A stretch of 58,553 nucleotides of DNA, the filler included, from Porpidia crustulata (Eukaryota): the NCBI GenBank assembly GCA_964255105.1. It is 9 parts of 9 records of this genome, joined end to end, with 100 filler letters (N's around TTAATTAATTAA, not from the genome) between each part and the next. Parts side by side here need not be neighbours in the genome. Positions count along the whole stretch, not along the records: positions 32,615 to 39,028 come from CAXUWE010001550.1; 8 more parts are not named here. One strand, given 5' to 3'. The notes under the pieces were generated by a model, which worked only from the letters and a program-made list of their open reading frames with translations, ran no database searches and was not told where the DNA came from. Both the position numbers and the translations under genes were made by a program. This document shows, one piece after another, positions 5,888-52,147 of the stretch; the first letter of the stretch is position 1; every line of letters begins with the position of its first letter.

Positions 5888-6429
5888 TATTGGTATTGGT
5901 AGGTTGTATATATTTTCGGGTTTTTTGTCCTAATGATACGATTTATCTTCAACAAGTTGCCATGAACGTCCTTTTACCCCAAACGCTCCTTCTACTCCCT
6001 CATCTCCATTCTCAGCACCAGCCGCCTATTTCGATTCGGAAGAAAGCGCATCCGACGCTTAAATAACATCAAACCCCTACTCCTCAATTCTACGCTTTCA
6101 TCTCCCTCGCGTCACAATAAATAATCATTTGAAATCTCCAACGCCCTTTGTAACCCCCCCAAGTCGATCCAAGATAAATTGACGGAAAATTCCTAGACGG
6201 CGAGACGGAAGGCGTTTGAGCGGTTTTTTGGTCGTCGAGGTGTAGAGGCATAGGTGTGCTTTTTTTTGTGGGGGGAAGGGGGGGAAAGAGGGGAAAAGTT
6301 ATAATACCAGGGACTGGGAAGAGCAGCGAATTTGGACGCGTGAGGTTGTAAAGCGCGTGTTATTGCTATATCTTGTGATTTCAGGGATTGAAGGAAGCTG
6401 GTAACATATATATATGTATTATATACACC

Positions 6430-6529
6430 NNNNNNNNNNNNNNNNNNNNNNNNNNNNNNNNNNNNNNNNNNNNTTAATTAATTAANNNNNNNNNNNNNNN
6501 NNNNNNNNNNNNNNNNNNNNNNNNNNNNN
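6430..6529. other. Artificial contig linker (N44-TTAATTAATTAA-N44)
   Basis: Six-frame stop spacer flanked by Ns. Confidence 0.99.
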
Positions 6530-7439
6530 AATGTAAACACAACCGCTCACAACATATCAAAAATAAAAAACCATCATTCCTTTTCCAAATCCTTACATCT
6601 CAGATTCCCTTTTGAAAATCTAATCAAACACTCTGACCGTGCATCTATCCACCCATTCCCATTCCCATTCACTCACGCAGCCAGAGAAAACTTGTCAACG
6701 ACACCGAGCAACGGGCTGGCTGGCTGACAATTCTATTATCACCTTTCTGAACATTGCTGCAGGTTCTTTTGACAGCGATTTCCTCGTCATTTCGGGTGCA
6801 AACCTGATAGCTCACGGTGGCATAGCTGGATGGAAGCACCATCGCTACGCTTGAAGATCAAACAAGTCATCATCAAATGTTCATCATTGATTCCGTACTG
6901 TCTGGGGAGATTGACTGGCCAATCACGCATAGAGAAATAGAGTACGAGGCCAGCCGCAAAGCATACACTCCGTAATCTTCGAGGCAATCACCACGTACTC
7001 ACTCCGTAAAACACGACTCTTCAACCGGGGCAAAATTGGGGGTTCAACAGCTACTAGATTGGCTATCTAACCACCTTCACCTACCACCACCACCATCATC
7101 CTCCTCCCTTCAGCCCCACGAAAAAAAACATTCTTACACTCTTTTTCGCCAATTGCCAATCTAATCGAGTAAAATGAAAAAGAGAAGCCCGCACAGCATT
7201 GCCTGACCGCTTACTAGCATCCGCCGACAAATTTCAAAAGGAAAATTATCGCCATCATTCCCAGGGCGACATCGTATCCACATTGCAAACTCGTTGGTAA
7301 CATGAGCCCTTTTGCACTTGCTCGTAGGATGGTCGGAAGCGCTTTCGGCAGGCGCATTGCGATCTTGATGATATGCTATGTTTTGTTAGCCTTGGTTTCG
7401 CTCTGGCGCAGTGCACTTTGCTCATCTCGCCTACACACC

Positions 7440-12957: not shown

Positions 12958-13057
12958 NNNNNNNNNNNNNNNNNNNNNNNNNNNNNNNNNNNNNNNNNNN
13001 NTTAATTAATTAANNNNNNNNNNNNNNNNNNNNNNNNNNNNNNNNNNNNNNNNNNNN
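12958..13057. other. Artificial contig linker
   Basis: N44-TTAATTAATTAA-N44. Confidence 0.99.
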
Positions 13058-19479: not shown

Positions 19480-19579
19480 NNNNNNNNNNNNNNNNNNNNN
19501 NNNNNNNNNNNNNNNNNNNNNNNTTAATTAATTAANNNNNNNNNNNNNNNNNNNNNNNNNNNNNNNNNNNNNNNNNNNN
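19480..19579. other. Artificial contig linker
   Basis: N44-TTAATTAATTAA-N44. Confidence 0.99.
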
Positions 19580-19621: not shown

Positions 19622-20393
19622 AGACTACGTTAGTAGTCATCCTTATGTCATCCGCGTGATGTCAACCAATGATATCAAGGCCGGAGCAACGTCCGACCGC
19701 CGTCTGTACCATCTGTGCCTCAACCGATGACTAACGTAACAAGCTGCACAGCTGCACCACTATTAATATTGATTCATGAAGTCAGGAAGTGATATCGTGC
19801 CTCGTCTCATAGCTACAGAATCGACGAGCACAGGAAGATGCAAAAGTATGATAACATTCAGGTCCTCCATCTGTACTATCTATACGATTGCCTATGGATA
19901 AACCATTTATCTTGACAAATTTGGCGCTCTCAGAAATTTCGTTATGCAGTTTTGGGCAGAGTAATTTCAAGGGTTCAAAACCTTAATTCGGTCGGACATC
20001 GGAGGAAGTCCCGGCTTCTCAAAACACCTACATTTGCCACCTGATACGTTCAACCTGACTTTGCTTCGGTCCAGATATATATCTTACTCCTACCAAATTG
20101 GGACACCACTGCACAAGTCAATTCTCAGTGCTCAGGATCGTCTTACCTTAGCCCGCAAACATTTTTTCGATGGAAGTATCGTAGGTACTACCCACTAGCA
20201 AGTCGTACTACTCCTCCTTACTTACTTATTGCCATGCAAGATTCCACAATCCATGTCCTTCCCCTCCCTGCCTTGGTCGCCTTTACCTTGGCTTCACTTA
20301 AAAGGCCCGGCGTTGGGCAGTCGATGATTTCGTCAACTTCGACGGGGCCCTCTTTGACGCAGGCACACGAACGAGACTGCATTGTCCTCAATC

Positions 20394-23300
20394 ATGAACG
20401 ACGATTCTCCAACATCAAGAGACCATGACCACGCAGGTCGTAGCCAGAAAACGCAGTCTTCACAGCAAAACGAGGTACCGCATTCAGGAGGCATGAAGGT
20501 AAATACAAGCGCTGAAGGACACACCATTCAACATAAGTGCGGTCCCAATTCCCCAGGCTCTTCGTCTGTGAGCTTTCCTTTTGGGCAGTTAAGTCCTACT
20601 ACTACAGATCGTGTGTTTCCAATCAGATCGTTCGTCTCTGTTGATTCTACACCTACGCCTGCCCCAGGAAGTCGCGTCGAACTACCTAGTGACAATGGGT
20701 TTCGTGCGACGATGTCAAGTGGTAGTGATAGCACCAGTGCTTCAAATGGTGGGTTACGATCTGGTCCGCATTCAGATTCGCCCAGCACCACCTATGCTAC
20801 AGAACATGAGTCGGATTTTGTAAATCATGGCACTCCGTCTAAGCTTCGTCGTGATACAGGGACTCCGCGATATAGAAGTGCCGGGCAGCGGCCATCTGGA
20901 AATGAACACCAAACAAAATCAATGTCAAATGAAGAAAGAGTTGGCGAAGGGAGCTCGACAAAAGGTGTGGCTCGGAGTAACTCATTGTTGTCTGGAAGTA
21001 CGCCTAACGTGGCCGGATCATTGGGTGGAGCTGCCGCCATAGATCACAGTGGAGAAATACCCAAATCTACGGGGGAGCTCCTCACCACCCGATTCAAGCA
21101 TGTTATGGCTAAAGATGGTCACGCGGTCGTTGATGGTCGAGACGGAGACGTTTTGCAGCGTTGTGAAGATGAACCAATACACATCCCAGGGGCTGTCCAA
21201 GGATTTGGGCTTCTGATTGCCCTTCAGGAAGATGATGAGGGCATGTTCAAAGTTAGAGTAGTTAGCGAGAATTCTAACCGGATTATTGGCTACACTCCTA
21301 AACAGCTTTTTGACCTTGATAGCTTCTGTGATATCCTTTCAGAAGAGCAAACGGATAACCTGATTGATCATATTGATTTCATCAGGGAAGATGACGCAGA
21401 CCCTGCGACCAACGGGCCTGAAGTCTTTACTCTTGCTATACGACCACCATCGAAAAGATCACAAAGAAATCTGTGGTGTGCTATGCACGCAAACATAAAC
21501 AACCAGGACCTAATCATCTGTGAATTTGAGCTCGAGGATGATACCCTATATCCGTTGGTACCTCCTGATGAAACGACCCCCGAGCCGCCTGAAGATACTT
21601 TACGCATCAATCCCACGGCAGAAGAGTTTGCCGAAAGTACTGTTAACCCAAGCAAACCTCTGCGTGTCCTTCGGGGTGCCAGGAAACGAAAAGGTGAAGC
21701 TGCAGCAATGGAAGTCTTTAACATTATGTCGCAAGTACAAGAACAGCTGGCGAACGCCCCAAATCTTGAGATGTTCCTTAAGGTCCTTGTTGGCGTTGTG
21801 AAAGAGCTGACAGGGTTTCATCGTGTGATGGTTTACCAATTTGATCATGCATGGAATGGAAGGGTAGTCACAGAGCTAGTAGATCCGAGAGCAACTAAGG
21901 ATCTGTACAAGGGACTAAAATTCCCGGCCTCAGACATACCTAAGCAAGCAAGAGATTTGTACATGATCAACAAAGTCCGGCTACTTTATGATCGAGATCA
22001 AGAGACTGCTCGTTTGGTATGTCGGACGTTGGAGGATCTCGAAAGACCGCTTGATCTGACATATGCGTATCTCCGTGCAATGTCCCCGATCCATATCAAA
22101 TACCTTGCGAATATGGCTGTCCGTGCTTCAATGTCCATATCAATCAACGCCTTTGATGAACTCTGGGGCCTTATAGCATGTCATTCTTACGGTTCGAAAG
22201 GCATGCGAGTCTCCTTTCCAATTCGCAAGATGTGTAGGTTGGTGGGTGATTCCGCCTCACGAAACATAGAAAGGCTATCGTATGCCTCCCGATTGCAAGC
22301 ACGGAAACTCATCAACACTATGCCCACCGAGAATAATCCATCAGGCTACATTATTGCCTCGTCAGATGATTTGCTCAAACTATTCGACGCCGACTGTGGT
22401 CTTCTTTCAATTAGAGGAGAAACAAAAATCTTGGGGAAACCCGAGCAAACCCAGGAGGCTCTGGCAATGCTAGAATATCTGCGCCTTCGAAAGATCAGTT
22501 CTGTTACTACATCATCCAACATCGGAGCTGATTTCCCCGATCTACGATATCAACCTGGTTTCACTGTCATCGCCGGCTTGTTACTCGTTCCTTTGTCTGT
22601 GGTTGGTACCGATTTTATTGTGTTCTTTCGGAAGGGTCAAACTCGGGAAGTCCGATGGGCCGGCAATCCTTATGAGAAGTTTATTAAACAGGGAACAGAT
22701 GGCTTTCTTGAACCGCGAAAGAGCTTCAAAACATGGAGTGAGACTGTGGTAGGCAGTTGTAGAGAATGGACCGAAGAGCAGGTCGAGACCGCGGCTGTCT
22801 TATGTCTGGTGTATGGAAAATTCATTGACGTGTGGAGGCAGAAAGAAGCTGCATTGCAGAAGAGTCAATTCACTCGACTGTTGTTGGCGAACTCGGCACA
22901 TGAAGTCAGAACGCCGCTGAATGCTATTATCAATTATCTTGAGATAGCTTTAGAAGGCTCTCTCGACCCGGAAACGAGGGAGAACCTATCCAAGTCACAT
23001 TCGGCTTCCAAGTCACTTATATACGTCATCAACGATCTACTCGACCTCACTAAAATCGAAGAAGGCCACGATCTTATCAAGGACGAAGTGTTTGATTTGC
23101 CAGCAACAGTGAGAGAAGCAAGTGAATATTTCGTGGGGGATGCAAAACGAAAAAAGATATCGTATGAGGTTATTGAGAATCCGGGTATACCTCAATTTGT
23201 TGTCGGAGACCAGAGACGCGTGCGACAAGCAATATCAAACGTCACTGCTAATGCCATACAACATACAAACAATGGTGCGGTAAAGATAGAACTCTGGCTA

Positions 23301-24974
23301 GTCAATCGCGGTGAAGATTCTGTCAATATAGACATTGTTGTACAAGACACAGGAGAAGGAATGCTACCTCAGAAACTCAATCAGCTATTCAATGAACTTG
23401 AGGAGATTCAATCTGAGAATGATGAGGGGCTCCAGGAAAAACTTGCCTCCGGAGATCATACGATCATAGGCAAAGAGAGCGGTAAGAAAACCCTCGGACT
23501 CGGCCTTGCGTTTGTAGCTCGAGTAGTTCATAACATGAATGGTCAGCTCAGACTCAAATCGGAGGAAGGTAAGGGATCGAGATTTGTCATACAGCTTGCC
23601 TTTAGCTTGCCAGAAGGTATTGAAGGTAGAGATGTGAAACGAAGCGCAGTCAATGCTGGTGTTGGGCCTCCTGAGAACCAGCCAACAACACCTCCAATCG
23701 AGGTTGGAGAGGTCATGCTAGTGAACAGAAGTGCGCAGAGGTCGTCGCATGAGGTTTCTGGCAAATCGTCGCGCCGCAAAAGTAACGAGAGTATGGATAG
23801 CACAAAGATCGCGAATAGTCTCAAAAGCTTCAAGAGTGGGTCGAGTGCGAGAAGCGATGTAGATCGACTGATCGATGCAGTCCAAGAACCACCTATGGGA
23901 ACTAAAAAACACTCTACAGGTCTAGATGTCTACTCTCCGCCCAATAGCAATCGACGTCAACGAAGGGTGTCATCCCGACGACCTAGTACCCTGTCCCGTT
24001 CTCAGTCGTTGTCGGACCGAATTCCACAATCGAAAACCCCGGGCCAAATGGCTATCAATGGTTCTAAAACTCCCATAAGACCTGTACGAATCCAAGGAGT
24101 GGACAGTCAAGGATCACCTGTGTCAGAAATCGCTCCAAGAACTCCAGCACGCATGTTATTTGATGTTCAGGATAATGCCAAGGAGTGTACTACCCGTTTG
24201 ACAGCGGATAAGCTGAACGTGCTAGTGGCAGAAGACGACCCCATCAATAGCAAAATCGTAAAAAAGCGATTAGAGAAGATAGGACATGTAGTTCATTTGA
24301 CGGTCAATGGCGAGGAATGCGCTGCGGCGTACGGAGAGAGTCCTACTACATATGACGTCGTCTTGATGGATATACAGGTGAGCACTTGGAGAGCGTCTGA
24401 AACACTTCTATAAGTATGTACCTGATTGTTTGATTAGATGCCGATTGTCGATGGCCTTGCGTCGACTAGGCTGGTCCGATCATACGAGAAGACGCACCCT
24501 GCAAATCATCTATCGGACCGTGCAACATTGAACGGCCGAATCCCAGTCTTTGCTGTCTCGGCTTCCTTGGTAGAGAAAGAGCGCCAGGTGTATATCGATG
24601 GCGGCTTTGACGGCTGGATCCTCAAGCCTATCGACTTCCGGCGGCTCAATATTCTGCTATCTGGTATCGTGGAAATGAACATCCGAGTAGATTGTTTGTA
24701 CAAGCCTGGCAATTGGGAGAAAGGCGGATGGTTTTCACAGGAACAGCCGAACGTCTTCACTGCGGCGCCAATGCCATCGATCAAAGCGCCGGTCCTTAGC
24801 ACGGGACCAGCCTCGGGTCCCGTAGAGCCACTTGGGGATCGGACAGATACGGAGCGAGATCGTCTCAACACACTTGAGACTGACGCTGTGCATTCGAGCT
24901 CCGAGCCGCAAGAGCTCGACCAATCTGGCAAGCTCAGTCAGTGTGTCGTGGAAGACTACACGCACCTACCCTAA
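20394..24974 (+). CDS. fphA: Fungal phytochrome (red-light sensing hybrid histidine kinase: N-terminal extension-PAS-GAF-PHY-HK-REC), 1 intron 24378-24437
   Basis: Chromophore Cys in QRCEDEPIHIPGAVQ, GAF motif FPASDIP, PHY motif PRKSF, H-box NSAHEVRTPLNAI, G-boxes DTGEG/GLGL, receiver VVLMDIQMP. Confidence 0.96.
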
Positions 24975-25999: not shown

Positions 26000-26099
26000 N
26001 NNNNNNNNNNNNNNNNNNNNNNNNNNNNNNNNNNNNNNNNNNNTTAATTAATTAANNNNNNNNNNNNNNNNNNNNNNNNNNNNNNNNNNNNNNNNNNNN
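26000..26099. other. Artificial contig linker
   Basis: N44-TTAATTAATTAA-N44. Confidence 0.99.
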
Positions 26100-31765: not shown

Positions 31766-32446
31766 AGTTAGGCCTCGATAGCGGAATGCAAAGTCTGTGT
31801 TGGACGATCGATGAGGGAAGCGATGTGTGGGAATCTGAAGTGCGATTTAGCGATACGCAGGCATAAGGCGTTGGATTTGTGGGGTTTGAGAGGCGTATCT
31901 GAAGATAGATATAGTAGGGATGAGAGATAGATTGTATATTTTGCAGATATGCTTTTTACTGTATGTAAAAGGTTGCGCTATCGCATCGTGGGTTCACCGG
32001 ATGGGGATGGGAAGAAATGGAGGTGGGGTGGAGAGGAGATGGGAGGTGGGTAGATGGGTAGATGAGTAGATGGGATGCTTGGGCTTTTCGAGGGCTGAGA
32101 AGACTACTATACTTCGTTGCGAAGATCCCGAGCTCTCTCCCTAACAAGAACAGAACTACCACCAATTTTGTTTGTTTATAAAACCCCCCTTTGCCTTCCC
32201 TCCCAGACAGCCTACGAAAACTTACAAAATCCTTATGAAATAACCAAACCTACAAAATCCACCAAACTACGAGACCTACGAAACCACCCAAACCACCCAA
32301 ACCAAATCTTTCCAAGCCCCGCTACTGTATAATTCCACCATCATTCGATAATTTTAAAAATAATCGAATGTGGCATGAATTATTTGAATATTATGACGAA
32401 TGTGTGTGTTAAAGTGAATATGCGAAAATAATTATTTAAGTATAGA

Positions 32447-32514
32447 TATGAAGATAATGAAGAAGATGGAGATGAAGATGAAGATAAAGATGAAGATAAA
32501 GATGAAGATGGAGA
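32447..32514 (+). repeat. Degenerate (GATGAA/GATAAA/GATGGA)n hexamer microsatellite at contig end
   Basis: gatgaagatgaagataaagatgaagataaagatgaagatgga. Confidence 0.85.
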
Positions 32515-32614
32515 NNNNNNNNNNNNNNNNNNNNNNNNNNNNNNNNNNNNNNNNNNNNTTAATTAATTAANNNNNNNNNNNNNNNNNNNNNNNNNNNNNN
32601 NNNNNNNNNNNNNN
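32515..32614. other. Artificial contig linker
   Basis: N44-TTAATTAATTAA-N44. Confidence 0.99.
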
Positions 32615-33137
32615 GGGCAAATGATGTGTATAGCTTTAAACTACTTTTTTGGGCATGCTATAACTAATCAAACAAGTAGATTTTAGCTACAGTATCAAAA
32701 CCAGTGTTTTTAACTTCCCCACCATTTTTTCTTTCTTTTGATTTTCATTTTTGTGCACACGGCGATATCTAACTCAATTACGGTAAGATCGTGACAGCCA
32801 CAGCGCCTGGGCGAAGCCTCCAACGAGCGAGGGGTAAATACTGCGCGCCTTTCCCATTCTCGGTGTCTGGTCTATCATGTGCATCTTTGAGCGATATTCA
32901 ATTCCCCACATATTTTGGTTCAACCATAAAGTCTGAGACTCTTTGCGAAGATATCTATGGCACCAGCGCTGAGCCTTGAGCACAACGGAGGCAATGGGTT
33001 CAAATTTCAAATGGGAGAGTGGGAGGGAAAGCCGAATTACATGCTCCACACAAAATCCGCTTTGAAATAGTATGCCCTGCATTGTTTTTCCTATTTTGCA
33101 TCATATCAAATTGTTTATATTTCAGAGTAGCTTCAAC

Positions 33138-34005
33138 ATGCCGCCTGAATTCGTGGCGATTTACAACACCGATGCAGTCCAAGTGGAGACTGTCCGACAT
33201 TTCGCGCTTGGCCCGGAAGGAAAGTGGTACTTTGAGCATGTGGATCGCGGCAAATTGATCTGTAGTACGTCAAAAATTAAACAATTCAAGGCCCTCGGGA
33301 TCTTTGGCCTGGCGTTCTAATCCGCTTTCCCAGACCATTCATCCAATTATCTCGACGGGGTTGACATTGATTGGAAAAACGGGCCCATTCACCATATCGA
33401 GTTTGGTGCAGGTAAGACGGTATGGGGCATGCAGAAGAAGCAGACGACCAGCCTCAAGACGATCATGTTCTCCGCCCACCTACCGGCCGACTTCCAGGAG
33501 ATGCTGCAGATTCGACTCCGCGAGGGGGTTATCCGAGACTACAACACCGATATTCGCTATGCGGCATTCGGCCACAATGGCCAGTGGGTGTTTGGCACGC
33601 TTCGTCGACTGGACTGGAGTGGAAATTTAGATCCCAATATTCTCGAGCGCGTGAGTGCTCGCGACAAGCCGTTCGGGATACAAGTAAGTCCCGTTGGTAG
33701 ACTTTTCAGCGCCAAGATCGAATTCTGGATGCTGAAATGGTTCGCAATCGTGACAGAATGTGGAGCTCTCCCCGATCGATGCGGCTGACTGTTTCATTGA
33801 ATATACCGATCGTTCAACGTGCTTCATACCCGCAGGCGTTTGGGCCCTCGATCCGTTGGTGACTGCGGAAAATGCCCTCACGGAGAACCACAGAAAGCGC
33901 CCCGGTCGAGTGACTCGCAATTACGAAGAAGATGCTAAGACTGCGGCAAAGGGTCTGAAGGTAGTCCGTAAAATGATAGGCTTGGGTGGGCTGTTCGGTT
34001 CTTGA
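33138..34005 (+). CDS. Uncharacterised protein, 3 exons (33138-33264, 33334-33683, 33757-34005), with repeated (L/F)G-x-x-G-x-W beta motifs
   Basis: GTACGT..CTAAT..CAG and GTAAGT..CAG introns join three ORFs in phase; motifs FALGPEGKWYF, IEFGAGKTVW, AAFGHNGQWVF. Confidence 0.7.
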
Positions 34006-35289
34006 ACAAACATCCTGTCAGTCTTTATTGATATTTGTCTTTGTCTCCATGTTCATCCCACCACTTCCTATGTCAAGTTGTCAATGCAACTAAGGAAGAG
34101 GCCGGAGAGATCGCGGAAGGCCAAAGTATGCTCCTACAGCATCATACCGTAATTTCCAGTCAGCAAGTCAATTGAGAGCTGAGAGTACTTAGCATGTGAA
34201 TATAATTATAGCTGTGAAGTGGAGATTTCCTACGTTTGGTATTCACCAATTGTGGTGAGCTAGTATTTTCGAGTATTCAAGAAGTGCGGGTCATAGTTTT
34301 CCCAAGTTCAATTCCAGAGGTATTGAGAATATAGAATCATGTGGCTTTAAATTACTCTCCATGCTTGGGGCCTGGCCGAAAGCTGACTGACAGCACCGAA
34401 TCATGGAGACGGATTTCAGACGCTGTGATGATGCAAGATACCCTGACGCAAATCCTGAAGCCCGCTTGCCAGAGCATACGCCTTAGCGAGACAAAGCTTG
34501 ACGTATCATCCATGTTGGATCTACAACGAACTGGCGATCTTGATGAATCTATCATCTTTCCTTCTCTGCATGCCTGACCAGCGCCTACCCCCGCCTGATC
34601 AGTTCAGCCAGGGAATATACTTTGCGACTCTTCATTGACTAGTTCCCTTCTGCTTATTACGCACTGGAACCCGAGTTCGTTCTGGCGCACCCAGATCTTG
34701 ACACTCAAAATATATCGGTTTCTCCGGAAAGCGGACCGTGGGGAATTATCGATTGGGATGGGGTAGGAACGGTACCACACTGTGTTGGAAACGAACAATA
34801 CCCCAGCTGGTTGACGCGCGATTGGGACCTAGCCAAATACGATTGTGGTGATGGAAGAGCCGGAGCTGATGCTGGATGCCTTAGAAACTCACCGGAAGGA
34901 CTTGTTCGCTGTTGAGCTATGTACCTGTAATTGAAGGAGCGTTGCCTAACCAGGGAGGATAGGAGCAAGAGCCATCCGAAGACTCCTCTCGGCGCTACCA
35001 TTGCAAACGTGAGAAGCAACTTTGAGATCTCCCATTGAGGATTTCGTGAACAGCAACCCTCTCGGAGAAAGTGTCAATACATTTGGCAATTCGGCATGCC
35101 AAAAAAACGTCTCGAACGCCAGGCGTGATACAATTTTCCAGCTGTTTGACCTCCCAACCGGTAATCAGGCCTTCCTTGACATATCTTATTCACGGCTTCT
35201 TATTGTGGTCTGGTCGATAGAAATGATGGGTTGTCACATGTGCTGTGCGTGCCAGAGACACCCAGAAAAGTTAATTGAGTGGTATACCG

Positions 35290-35682
35290 TCACACCGAAT
35301 GTCTTCCCCAAGGAATTTTATCGATCAAACCGCGGTGTAGATATGTTTCCTCCAAATCACTGCCATTGTGTTAGAAATTGTCTCGAACGCAATTAGAGAA
35401 CTGGAGGGCCAACAATGAAGCTTCTTTCCGCACCACTTTATAGAAATACAAGGAGGTGTTCTTAGGGTCAGGCTGCGAGCTATGATAATTGCAGTCTACC
35501 AGCACATGGCATCTAGCATTAGACGTTAATATTTCTCCTTGAGCATGTACAAAGTCCTGTTTGAAGTCGAAAACACGGCCGAGCAATTTGGTGCATGCTG
35601 CAGCGGCAACGAGAATGTCTTTTTCAGCAGGAGGTCCTGGGACCTGATCTGTACGAAATTTGATGAATATTCGGAGGGACAT
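35290..35682 (-). CDS. Small hypothetical protein (about 110 aa), probably 2 exons
   Basis: ORF MSLRIFIKFRT...LYFYKVVRKEAS; a putative GTTGGC..CTAAC..CAG intron gives the C-terminus DLEETYLHRGLIDKIPWGRHSV. Confidence 0.45.
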
Positions 35683-36543
35683 AGATGATTTTTTTCCTAT
35701 CTAGTTTGAGGGTGATGCCAGAACGTTACTAATTGAGCGACACATGAATGAATCTTTTCTATCTATCTCCGTAGAACGAGATAAAAATCATTTCCGGCCC
35801 GACCTATCCGCGTTAGGGTACCCTCGAACGGTTCCCGCACACCCTCCCGCCTCCTTCGCCTCGCCCGAGGGTCGGTAAAAGAAGTCGTGGGACACCAAAA
35901 CAAGCGATCCTAATTAATCTCCTACTAATTACATAGCAATGCACGGAGAAATCAATTAAATGTTTATTATTATTTTTTCTTGAATTGAATAGAATACTCA
36001 TTTAACATCACATTTGATTTCTGAATTCATAAATTGTTTTTAAATCATTTATCAAGTAGTTAATAAATTTTAAAGCTGAGAAATCGACTTTCTTCATCTG
36101 TGTGTGAGGGGTCGTAGTGAACTATATCAATTGACTAGACTAAGCCTATAATACAAGGAGAATAACTTAAGGAGGGAAAGGAATTTCTGTCGCGAAAACC
36201 TCCCTTTGGGATCAGCTTCTGAGCGGAAGGAATTCCGTATCGAGAATGCAGGTACGTAGTACCTAATCCAATTAATGGGTCTAACCCATCACACTGTGCA
36301 ATGTGTACAGGACTAAATTTATTATTCTGAAGATGCAGAAGATCTGTAATTCTTTAGATCAGATGTATGAGAACGTTTTATGACAGTAGAGTTAATGTTC
36401 CTCCTTGAATTGCTATAATAAGTAGAGATTTCATGGGAGTCGCTTGTCTTGGTGTCCCAAGACTCTTTTTACCGACCCTCAGCCTCAGTTATATCGATCA
36501 TATTCGAACAACCTATACATGTTGTTAGAAGCTGCATCGACGT

Positions 36544-36744
36544 CTAACACAGAATCCGATCTGACCCTAAGATGATGAAGAAAGATGTCGGATAGTTGCA
36601 TTCAGAACAATTACCATTTGCTGCGCCAACGTAAGGCGTCCTGATCCCAGTACATCCTGTTCCGTCGATCGCGCCTCTGCAACGAACGATCTCGCCGGTC
36701 GCTCTATGTCCACAGTCATCATCACATTGGCGATGATCACACAT
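36544..36744 (-). CDS. Small cysteine-rich protein (MC..CGH..C..C..CxxC-YPT), possibly degenerate
   Basis: 66-aa ORF with MCD..DCGH..RC..GC..CSECNYPT, a spacing resembling small non-secreted fungal Cys/Zn-binding proteins. Confidence 0.5.
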   Translation of the reverse strand: MCDHRQCDDDCGHRATGEIVRCRGAIDGTGCTGIRTPYVGAANGNCSECNYPTSFFIILGSDRILC

Positions 36745-37592
36745 TATGCACAGTGTCGCGCTGCTACGTCAGTGAAGGTATACTGATAGAGATATAGAGT
36801 AACGAAGTAGGGCAGAGCTGGAGGCCTTTTGTTCTTCACGGAGAGCGTAGTTTGTAGAGGATGAATTCCAAAGCAGCCGAGCGAACGGAGAGTCTATAAA
36901 ACCAGGAGTGACTCAGAAGCGAGGCGCTGCTTCTCCGAAATTCTGCATAATACCTTGTGTCTTTGAATCAATCAAGGCTTTTTTCACTACAAGACGCTGT
37001 GCCTCGTAAGAGCGGCAGGGGAAGTGATGTGACAAGAGCGAGCCAGCACAGAATCATTATCAGGTCTCCCGTAATGGGGCCCAAAATGCAGCTCGTCGTT
37101 TTGTCTGTACTCTACCTTTTATCATTCAGTAAATCCCAAAGCCCATCTTGTTCACGGGACAGTTAGGTTTAGGGAAATGGAAGGCGCGCCCAGCACTAAG
37201 GCCGCCCGTCTCCGCCTCCTTCAGCTTCTCTTTTCCCTCCTCAGCCATCCTCTCCTTCTAAGGATACGCATCTGAGAAAATGTGCTTGAAGGAGTAGAAG
37301 TTGGTTGAGTCCGAACAGCTTGTAAGCATCGACGACAGAATGTAGAGGAGAATAAACGCGACGCATTAGAAATCGATGTAGACAAATGGGCGTCGAGGAG
37401 GCTGTCTCAAGGGCGTGGTCCATATGGGTGTAATTTGAAACATGAGGCCCCTGTCGCATCACTCAAGCTGAAGACTCGGAGCCTGAACAAGCTCCTGCGT
37501 CTCGTTAATCCTAAATTTTCAGCATTCATAAGATCTGGCTCTTCTGAAGATTGAAGTGTATGACGTATAATCTGCTTCCAACATAAAAATCA

Positions 37593-38093
37593 ATGAGACA
37601 AAAGAAGAAGCAAAACACTCAAAGAAGAAAGAGAAGAAAGAGCCTTTTTCATAAGATCTATCAGATAGAAAAGCTGTGCGATGTTGACGCAACGATTTTT
37701 GTGTATCAATCCGACGATGATCAGCATCATATCTATCGATTCATAGATCGACGCTCGTGATCGTCAATCTTAGACTGTATTATATATGAAACTTCTACTC
37801 ACGCTTCTACAGAGCGATGCTGATTCGATATATAACAATGTGCGAGATCCACGTCGCAACACATGCTGTCTCAGAATTTCGAATATTTAATCAAGTCAAC
37901 GAATGCAAGAATAGATCTAGAAGCAATCTGTGTCAGAAAGAGAAGAAAGATAATGAACGATGATCGAGAAAAGATGTCTTCAAAGAAAACTTTCATTTTC
38001 TCGGATCCTCCAATTTTCGATCTGGCATTCAGGTGTAAAGGGAAGATCAAACAAGAAGAGTCATGCAAAGGCGATATAGACTTAGTTGAATAA
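37593..38093 (+). pseudogene. Divergent SRF-type MADS-box transcription factor pseudogene
   Basis: Translation RRKRRKSLFHKIYQIEKLCDVDATIFVY..HHIYRFIDRRS*SS matches the recalled MADS pattern (RR.GLFKKA.EL..LCD.D...YRS...SWPP). TGA at 37758 replaces Trp. The donor and acceptor appear mutated (ATATAT, CAA). Exon 2 reads HMLSQNFE. Confidence 0.75.
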
Positions 38094-39028
38094 GGGCTCA
38101 GGTGTATTTAGAATGCTGATGGCAGATCGAGAATTCACGAGTATCATTTCTGGTGTCGGCTGGTATGTCTATTTCGTATCCGCCGCTGCCTGTTTGGAAC
38201 TTGGAAAACGGTCGTGCGTTCTCCAGAGCCGAAGCCAGATGGACGAAGCATAGAAATACATTCAATGGCACGAGAAAGCTATCTAACGGCGTCAGCAAAG
38301 GTGCTTGTGCCGCGAGATCAAATAACCCACGTCCAACTGAAATCCGGTTTACCGCAATGCCACTTTTCGGTCGTTGAGCATAGTAGGAAGCCATAGAGTC
38401 CACACGTTTCGAACATCAGAACAATCTCAACGATACCAGATCCTATCCAAATGAACAAAAATTGCCTCAAGCGCATACGACTCTTAGATGCTTAGACTTC
38501 CGGATTTTCTGCCTCCGCGACCCTTTGAGTGCCTTATATTTCTTTCGAGTTCGACCGTTTTCGGACTCGTTGAGAGGGGCACTTTATTCTATAACGGCTG
38601 ACGAAGCTGTCACGTCCGTTTTCTGGATCTCCTACAGATTCTTCTTGGACGCAACGTTATGATTGGAGGCCTTGAGCAGCCCTTCATGATGTCCTAACCT
38701 AGTAGAGATTATGCGGTACAACAAGTCAATCTAAGAGCCTTCTTGGTGATGTAGAAATTGAAGTGAAGGGAAGGTGTCACTGAAGGCAACGAGATTATTG
38801 AAAGGGGCTGAAATTAGTCTTCATGGCTCGAAGCAAGTCTCAACGAAGGCTGTGGAGCTTGAACGGGTCCCTTAAGCTGTGGCTCATCCTCGCCTCACCC
38901 TCGTCTCACCCGACGCTGGTGATATAGCGGCGATACTCACCCTCTAGAACGGGAGCAGCATTCGGTGAGGTAGTGATTCGCATTAAATCTTTCTCTGATG
39001 TTGAACTTTCGCGATTCTCGCTTAAACC

Positions 39029-39128
39029 NNNNNNNNNNNNNNNNNNNNNNNNNNNNNNNNNNNNNNNNNNNNTTAATTAATTAANNNNNNNNNNNNNNNN
39101 NNNNNNNNNNNNNNNNNNNNNNNNNNNN
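39029..39128. other. Artificial contig linker
   Basis: N44-TTAATTAATTAA-N44. Confidence 0.99.
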
Positions 39129-45540: not shown

Positions 45541-45640
45541 NNNNNNNNNNNNNNNNNNNNNNNNNNNNNNNNNNNNNNNNNNNNTTAATTAATTAANNNN
45601 NNNNNNNNNNNNNNNNNNNNNNNNNNNNNNNNNNNNNNNN
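45541..45640. other. Artificial contig linker
   Basis: N44-TTAATTAATTAA-N44. Confidence 0.99.
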
Positions 45641-52047: not shown

Positions 52048-52147
52048 NNNNNNNNNNNNNNNNNNNNNNNNNNNNNNNNNNNNNNNNNNNNTTAATTAAT
52101 TAANNNNNNNNNNNNNNNNNNNNNNNNNNNNNNNNNNNNNNNNNNNN
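52048..52147. other. Artificial contig linker
   Basis: N44-TTAATTAATTAA-N44. Confidence 0.99.

Follow-up and report, generated by a model that had tools for sequence, protein, structure and literature searches.

In a 58,553-nt stretch of DNA from the fungus Porpidia crustulata (the window; 9 parts of 9 records joined, in which adjoining parts need not be genomic neighbours), a copy of a MADS-box (SRF-TF) gene carries a sharply bounded tract of 464 nt (37539–38002) with no GG and only four CC dinucleotides. It is well supported that near-saturating conversion of CpC to TpC on both strands, over at most 464 bp, destroyed this gene copy. The chances appear evenly balanced that the agent was a repeat-induced point mutation (RIP)-type system that acted on a then-duplicated segment, with a preference for CpC instead of CpA. 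The tract is the only locus with this signature that we examined. The features on which the argument first depends are:

37539–38002, no strand assigned: hypermutated tract; 0 GG, 4 CC and an excess of TC and GA, with CpG, CpA and TpG unaffected
37439–37538, no strand assigned: left flank upstream of the ATG; 3 GG and 6 CC in 100 nt
37593–38093, + strand: MADS-box (SRF-TF) gene copy, a pseudogene (Pfam SRF-TF, tblastn and alignments)

A short tract depleted of GG and CC

Given the tract's own base composition, 15.9 GG and 14.8 CC would be expected. Our recount returned 0 and 4 (the CC at 37578, 37643, 37711 and 37849), the very counts reported in a first-pass annotation of this DNA. Not one of the mononucleotide shuffles of the tract contained as few as four GG and CC together (0/20000; minimum 15, mean 30.4), and the Poisson P for the combined count is ~2e-9. 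Three of the four surviving CC read TCC, which fits a CCC that was struck once. The same annotation had described CA/TG and CG as still common and the flanks as normal, and both descriptions hold: CA occurs 31 times (observed/expected ratio, o/e, 1.01), TG 28 times (1.23) and CG 21 times (1.37), without depletion, while the 464-nt flanks contain 27 GG and 29 CC on the left and 23 GG and 21 CC on the right. TC (41, o/e 1.86) and GA (53, o/e 1.66) are in excess over their window-wide ratios of 1.16 and 1.17. The GC content of the tract is 36.4% against 46–49% in the flanks, and it drops only between 37539 and 38002. Restoring ~24% of G and C, the share that has a preceding G or a following C elsewhere in the window, would bring the tract back to a GC content of ~47%, the local norm; this arithmetic corresponds to ~50 changes, or ~11% of the tract.

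Across the window the tract is an outlier. Its GG-free run (37538–38003, 466 nt) is the longest in the window. A dinucleotide scan of the window ranked the tract lowest: among 115 N-free, non-overlapping segments of 464 nt, the one that overlaps the tract holds 10 GG+CC and the next lowest 34, and among sliding 400-nt segments (mean 45.7, standard deviation 10.5) the tract reaches 3 and the next lowest non-overlapping segment 25. The index (CpC+GpG)/(TpC+GpA) is 0.043 in the tract versus 0.82 in the rest of the window. For the two classical RIP indices the corresponding values are 0.50 versus 0.71 (TpA/ApT) and 1.55 versus 1.22 ((CpA+TpG)/(ApC+GpT)). Judged by the default criteria of RIPCAL (>=0.89 and <=1.03, respectively, as given in the relevant section of PMC2621366), these values score the tract as free of RIP. 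The expectation that standard indices would overlook this DNA, and the view that its signature is not that of classical CpA-type RIP, are both borne out.

Several other stretches of unusual composition lie in the window. Directly 3' of the tract, 170 nt (38011–38180) are free of CC with normal GG; about eight CC-free runs of this length occur elsewhere in the window, and the stretch may be due to chance or may be a one-strand extension of the mutating process. A CT-rich, CC-dense box at 37200–37260, ~330 nt upstream of the ATG, is spared by mutation and, as we assume, resembles the CT box of fungal promoters. A run of 163 nt free of GG and CC (35946–36108) was rejected as a candidate; it lies in an AT-rich spacer (35940–36110, ~25% GC), and composition alone explains it. 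The remaining long GG- or CC-free runs overlap blocks of N and are therefore artefacts. These blocks, at 6430–6529, 12958–13057, 19480–19579, 26000–26099, 32515–32614, 39029–39128, 45541–45640 and 52048–52147, recur about every 6.5 kb; they have been described as paired 44-nt blocks and produce spurious GG-free or CC-free runs such as 6401–6713 and 32339–32701.

The tract lies in a MADS-box pseudogene

Residues translated from 37587–37757 match Pfam SRF-TF (E 9.3e-08; 31.8 bits against a cut-off of 26). An exhaustive HMMER search returned 21 relatives at E<=1e-3 and a profile search 136 at E<=1e-5; word-index protein searches with a 57-aa fragment, under the 'longer' and 'near' settings, found no relatives. 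The few named relatives belong to Geoglossum (metagenome-assembled), Tricladium, Xylogone, Cadophora, Scytalidium, Sclerotinia, Lachnellula, Hyaloscypha and Rutstroemia. By these relatives the DNA would most likely be placed with ascomycetes close to Leotiomycetes or Geoglossomycetes, and a UBX protein encoded nearby agrees with Ascomycota. Full-length relatives (130–216 aa) are colinear with the window from 37590 to ~38090 in one frame, the C-terminal P-P-x-F-D motif included, and the relatives share 27–52% protein identity with the window copy. Their DNA has a short intron that follows the I-V-S motif; its donor reads ATT/GTGAGT or GTAAGT (the slash marks the exon end), its branch CTAAC and its acceptor CAG. 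At the intron position of the window copy (37779–37840) the donor reads ATT/ATATAT, and branch and acceptor are unrecognisable. Four further features of the gene copy bear on what follows:

37758–37760, + strand: premature stop TGA at a conserved Trp (W in 91% of 121 sequences), presumably TGG>TGA, that is GpG>GpA
37761–37766, + strand: Ser-Ser (TCG TCA) at the Pro-Pro of the family (92% and 95%), presumably CCN>TCN with the 5' C changed and the 3' C kept
38001–38003, + strand: last codon with a putative mutation, TCG (Ser), at a position that is Pro in 82% of 22 relatives
38004–38093, + strand: unmutated 3' end of the gene; P-P-x-F-D (CCT CCA ATT TTC GAT, 38007–38021) is intact and GG/CC density is normal

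The window copy contains three in-frame stops, two of them within the intron region, and the TGA at 37758–37760 is the sole clear premature stop within the coding sequence. It interrupts the family motif SWPP, for which the first-pass annotation had given the reading TCG TGA TCG TCA; exactly this stands at 37755–37766, where the family has S in 85%, W in 91% and P in 92% and 95% of sequences. To describe the wider damage we used a family alignment of 122 proteins, from which 6 long or weak HMMER matches had been removed, and called a column conserved when its majority residue reached >=60%. Within the tract, none of the seven conserved Gly, Pro or Trp columns is kept (0/7), and 12 of the 36 other conserved columns are. 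Exon 1 of the window copy has no Gly, Pro or Trp residue at all, compared with a family mean of 6.1 and a minimum of 2 (n=122). With a stop at the conserved Trp and the conserved core lost, the MADS-box copy is, judged from its sequence, a pseudogene.

The 5' C of CpC is struck on both strands

The direction and context of the changes can be read from the lost columns. Five are Pro>Ser (now TCG, TCA, TCC, TCT and TCG), one is Gly>Asp (GAT, from GGT) and one is Trp>TGA, and in all seven a transition has hit the 5' C of CpC or, in mirror image, the 3' G of GpG. The earlier remark that the three changes in SWPP all hit a C followed by C can thus be widened to 7/7 conserved Gly/Pro/Trp columns. 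Pro>Leu does not occur, and the Trp codon has become TGA, not TAG; the target is therefore the 5' C of CpC, 'C followed by C' and not 'C preceded by C'. Just 3' of the tract, the conserved Pro columns (2/2) and the other conserved columns (2/2) are all kept.

A hand tally of conserved columns yielded 12 CpC-type transitions in 11 columns, a count that also takes in Ala>Ile (GCC>ATC after AAG), Thr>Ile, Ser>Phe and Asp>Asn. Four C:G>T:A changes lie outside CpC (R>Q by CGA>CAA, V>I, R>K and L>F), and the remainder consisted of one ambiguous case, three reverse transitions and 12 columns in which transversions or more than one step are required. Since transitions outside CpC are about as frequent as reverse ones, they can be put down to background divergence, and the 12 columns with transversions or several steps show that no sampled relative gave rise to the copy by recent duplication. 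G>A and C>T changes occur intermixed, in two places side by side, at 37656/37657 (AAG ATC from AAG GCC) and at 37760/37761 (TGA TCG from TGG CCG), so both strands were struck.

The coding needs of the family do not explain the depletion, as its members retain GG and CC. In nine full-length relatives, whose DNA comes from metagenomes, the homologous region holds 21–34 GG (27.9 +/- 4.7) and 19–28 CC (22.1 +/- 2.4) per 463 steps, at a GC content of 0.47–0.49 versus 0.364 in the tract; the CA, TG and CG of the tract lie within or near the range of these relatives. Comparable GG/CC depletion was found in 0 of the 16 better metagenome loci. Segments low in GG+CC in the loci L020–L025 and L030 were rejected, being merely AT-rich DNA of 18–30% GC. 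Weak MADS matches mark L020 and L022–L025, on AT-rich contigs (GC 0.30–0.31 overall and 0.18 at their starts, the first 300 nt), as well as L030 (GC 0.43 overall, 0.30 at its start); these six loci probably come from other eukaryotes, with a low GG/CC that is compositional.

Borders of the tract

On the left, the last surviving GG stands at 37537–37538, and the first events, which fall in the untranslated leader, are unplaceable. On the right, the first surviving GG stands at 38003–38004 and is followed by an intact CCT CCA at 38007–38012; with the last event in codon 38001–38003, the GG at 38003 sets the right border to within ~2 nt. From the first to the last putative event the distance is ~400 nt, and the tract as a whole measures at most 464 nt. 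It starts 54 nt 5' of the ATG and ends 91 nt 5' of the stop, and so its extent coincides neither with that of the gene nor with that of a plausible transcript. The tract is bracketed by a direct repeat of 8 nt, GATCTGGC, at 37532–37539 and 38019–38026; a repeat as long turns up in 4.5% of control window pairs, and this one could be the microhomology mark of a former tandem duplication. Other repeats or hairpins around the tract amounted to short chance matches only.

Proposed mechanism and alternatives

We propose that the MADS-box gene copy was inactivated by enzymatic, context-specific C-to-T hypermutation. Along a segment of ~400–464 bp, essentially every CpC would have become TpC on both strands (GpG>GpA on the + strand), C before A, G or T would have been spared, and no change would have extended beyond the segment. 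The agent may have been an enzyme like RID or DIM-2, akin to DNA methyltransferases, that would read the 3' neighbour and act on both strands of duplex DNA. The segment would have been duplicated at the time of action, and the partner copy would have disappeared afterwards. Two routes known from Neurospora genetics could account for this loss: an unlinked duplicate may segregate away in a cross, and a tandem duplication may collapse. That the source fungus has a duplex-DNA C-to-T enzyme which is strict for the 5' C of CpC, saturating and limited with base-pair sharpness, be it a novel deaminase or a methyltransferase of the RID/DIM-2 type that follows a new target rule, we advance tentatively, as somewhat short of an even chance. 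Among 18 long open reading frames scanned in the window, none encodes a DNA methyltransferase.

Several observations weigh against a RIP-type process with a CpC rule. No second copy was found in the 58.5-kb window, where blastn and tblastn of the segment returned only the segment itself and tblastn of 128 family proteins hit only the 37500 bin. One public run (X1) contains the locus, at a depth of 9.69, and may be the window's own source; its contigs hold no partner on the tract at >=80% likeness, and two further X1 contigs touch only 38918–38972. The first-pass annotation had read the process as repeat-targeted, and this part of its claim found no paralogous copy to lean on, in the window or in the X1 contigs; the annotation itself had named such an absence among the grounds for refuting it. 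It had also taken the sharp boundaries as marks of a duplicated segment: the sharpness stands, the duplicate did not appear in either of these two data sets. Heavy RIP in Neurospora leaks past the borders of the repeat, and here there is no leak (GG at 37537, GG at 38003, CC at 38007 and 38010). The RIP-like signatures that we met in the literature are all CpA, CpT or CpG, and CpA is untouched in the tract. At the level of single sites, R>Q by CGA>CAA at a conserved site is not of the CpC type, and the G>A changes at the lost intron donor lie outside a GpG context. The ancestral sequence is itself reconstructed from relatives with only 27–52% protein identity, and a tally against the consensus of 11 metagenomic relatives, with too few sites and too distant sequences to weigh either way, gives changed fractions of 4/6 for CpC, 4/7 for CpA, 3/5 for CpT and 1/6 for CpG. 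Leave-one-out controls of that tally stand at 7%, 26%, 13% and 4%, respectively. Two of its 'CpT' cases read GpG once the window's own neighbouring bases are considered, and in both of its 'kept' CpC cases the neighbouring G has changed instead.

Some of these points would suit the same CpC-specific hypermutation without a repeat trigger, in which the locus was struck a single time, by either a heterochromatin-directed methyltransferase or a DNA deaminase. We consider this unlikely, though a serious alternative: the lack of a partner copy in the window and X1 contigs and the lack of leak beyond either border both favour it. The event could have taken place in a short silenced patch, or a fragment could have been mutated at another site and then brought in by homologous recombination, which would leave very sharp ends. 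Tract ends that match neither the gene nor a plausible transcript would agree with a recombination patch, yet a donor identical to the tract would be expected to appear among the X1 contigs or to break the contig that spans the tract. AID/APOBEC deaminases choose their C by the 5' neighbour, work on single strands and leave strand-coordinated runs. In the tract it is the 3' neighbour that decides (Pro>Ser in 5/5 conserved columns, TGA not TAG), and G>A and C>T stand side by side, which speaks against a deaminase of this kind. Ultraviolet damage was rejected; it affects mainly the 3' C of TC or CC and gives CC>TT, and here TC accumulates.

A slower route, in which CpC was methylated for a long time and 5-methylcytosine then deaminated spontaneously, would also confine the excess to transitions in one context, and it would suit the age and divergence of the copy in other respects (12 conserved columns with transversions or several changes). 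However, ~93% of the expected ~50 sites are lost, yet the other C:G>T:A changes (4) are about as many as the reverse transitions (3); CpG is undepleted (o/e 1.37), TpA is not raised, and a border sharp to ~2 nt would be hard to keep over long times. Maintenance methylation specific for CpC is not known to us from fungi, and we regard such decay as improbable. Still less probable is a sequencing or assembly artefact, although the sole public run with the locus, of modest depth, may be the window's own source, so that it speaks for uniqueness and not as independent confirmation. A contig of that run covers 36500–39000 and agrees with the window at 2501/2501 bases, with 0 differences and even depth across the borders; as it was built separately, no single assembly program can be responsible for the sequence. 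The frame, moreover, is still colinear with the gene family, and we know of no error mode that would be restricted to CpC yet strike both strands over 464 nt. Chance, or the ordinary coding composition of a Lys/Glu/Arg-rich region, could draw on the A-rich + strand and on GA being frequent in the relatives too (49.6 per 463 steps). Against it stand the shuffles (0/20000), relatives that encode the same domain with 21–34 GG and 19–28 CC, the presence of at least two Gly/Pro/Trp residues in exon 1 of all 122 family members against none here, and a stop at the conserved Trp; we hold this explanation to be so improbable as to be negligible.

Genomic surroundings

Named genes elsewhere in the window encode eIF3a, a UBX protein, Pan3, a phytochrome histidine kinase, actin and a YVC1-type channel, and the surroundings are ordinary single-copy housekeeping DNA, not a repeat-rich compartment. 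A long open reading frame at 20358–24413 (+ strand) contains PAS_2, GAF, PHY, HisKA and HATPase_c domains and a weak receiver domain; by its predicted domains it is a fungal phytochrome-type histidine kinase. The ~6 kb around the pseudogene (32700–39100) are a gene-poor gap between the housekeeping genes of the window, with no open reading frame above 155 aa and no Pfam hit. An Rfam scan of 36000–39000 gave no match.

Comparison with known systems

By analogy, the tract resembles the product of RIP in its restriction to transitions, its 3'-neighbour context, its hits on both strands and its size. A further point of resemblance is that the gene hit belongs to a family represented by 136 database matches at E<=1e-5. 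RIP, which depends on RID and DIM-2 in Neurospora crassa and other Pezizomycotina, likewise makes C:G->T:A changes only, reads the 3' neighbour and acts on both strands, and it likewise mutates a few hundred bp densely, creates stops and inactivates genes. In Neurospora the 3' neighbour decides and farther neighbours are of minor importance, and the responsible enzymes are considered to resemble methyltransferases and to work on duplex DNA (bioRxiv 10.1101/344036, in the portion available). According to the sections of PMC2621366 that concern RIP, the process is limited to C:G>T:A and requires a repeat above a size threshold; RIPCAL takes 300 bp as its default from the experimental threshold, and the tract, at ~400–464 nt, lies close to this size and above it. 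The tract departs from RIP in its dinucleotide: it prefers CpC, whereas the parts of the literature drawn on here report CpA for Neurospora, Podospora and Stagonospora, CpA with CpT for Sclerotinia and Magnaporthe, and CpG with CpA for Aspergillus. It also differs in a TpA/ApT ratio that is low, not high, in having no partner repeat in the window or the X1 contigs, and in showing no border leak. A link to repeats is plausible yet unproven; as far as it could be tested no repeat was found, and we do not file the tract as RIP but regard it as produced in a RIP-like manner under a different target rule.

A CpC-dominant RIP-like process was not reported in the full-text literature that we searched, a body outside which many subscription papers and supplementary files lie. 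CpC>TpC (GpG>GpA) is one of four formal classes in RIPCAL, with the index (CpC+GpG)/(TpC+GpA), and only CpA, CpG and CpT are named as dominant in the species analysed with it, in the sections of PMC2621366 at hand. The accessible part of a ten-genome survey likewise describes CpA, CpT and CpG signatures (PMC4352252), and the corresponding excerpts give CpA and CpT for Sclerotinia (PMC5381539) and classical CpA for Monilinia, where CpC>TpT appears only as double mutations (PMC8959702). In some Dothideomycetes CpC falls alongside a dominant CpA signal, as an extract of PMC5737583 has it. Two apparent mentions were discarded: 'CPC' in PMC5602860 is a strain number and no CpC process, and CpC in 10.1101/2025.05.29.656941 belongs to a remark on genome-wide composition.

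Lineage-specific dinucleotide preferences have precedents in the CpG/TpCpG hypermutation of transposons in Microbotryum and in MATE of Aspergillus nidulans, both as described in parts of PMC2621366 and PMC4352252. Unlike these cases, in which CpG is the target and transposons are affected, the tract spares CpG (o/e 1.37) and lies in a cellular gene copy within a gene-rich region. A parallel to the proposed process exists in methylation induced premeiotically (MIP) in Ascobolus and in the Masc1/RID-type, Dnmt1-related methyltransferases: a DNA-methyltransferase-like enzyme recognises a duplicated segment by homology and marks it within sharp bounds, in the passages of PMC4352252 that treat them; MIP, however, methylates without mutating, and in the tract the bases themselves are changed.

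Hypermutation of retroviral cDNA by APOBEC3G resembles the tract in its clustered G>A/C>T changes at CC/GG and in the TGA/TAG stops that it makes at Trp codons. APOBEC3G acts on a single strand, where it deaminates the 3' C of CC, with GG>AG, Trp>TAG and Pro>Leu as the outcome. In the tract the 5' C is struck on both strands, which gives GG>GA, Trp>TGA and Pro>Ser.

Implications

Our observations rest on one locus, and they would surprise specialists if the process were general. For annotation, they indicate that one event can erase all Gly, Pro and Trp codons and conceal a gene from similarity searches. If the proposed reading is true, the two indices on which most genome surveys rely would score such DNA as unaffected, and surveys that concluded 'no RIP' in some lineages would need a second look. 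The choice of context in RIP is thought to reflect a methyltransferase-like enzyme, and a CpC-specific relative would be a natural experiment on how RID/DIM-2 choose their cytosine. Such a relative would also be a candidate for converting C to T in duplex DNA under a fixed rule of two bases. Should the signature recur in other repeats of this genome, CpC would become a fourth RIP-like dinucleotide class besides CpA, CpT and CpG; and a CpC process, if real, would be invisible to current RIP indices and may be widespread, unnoticed, in fungal genomes.

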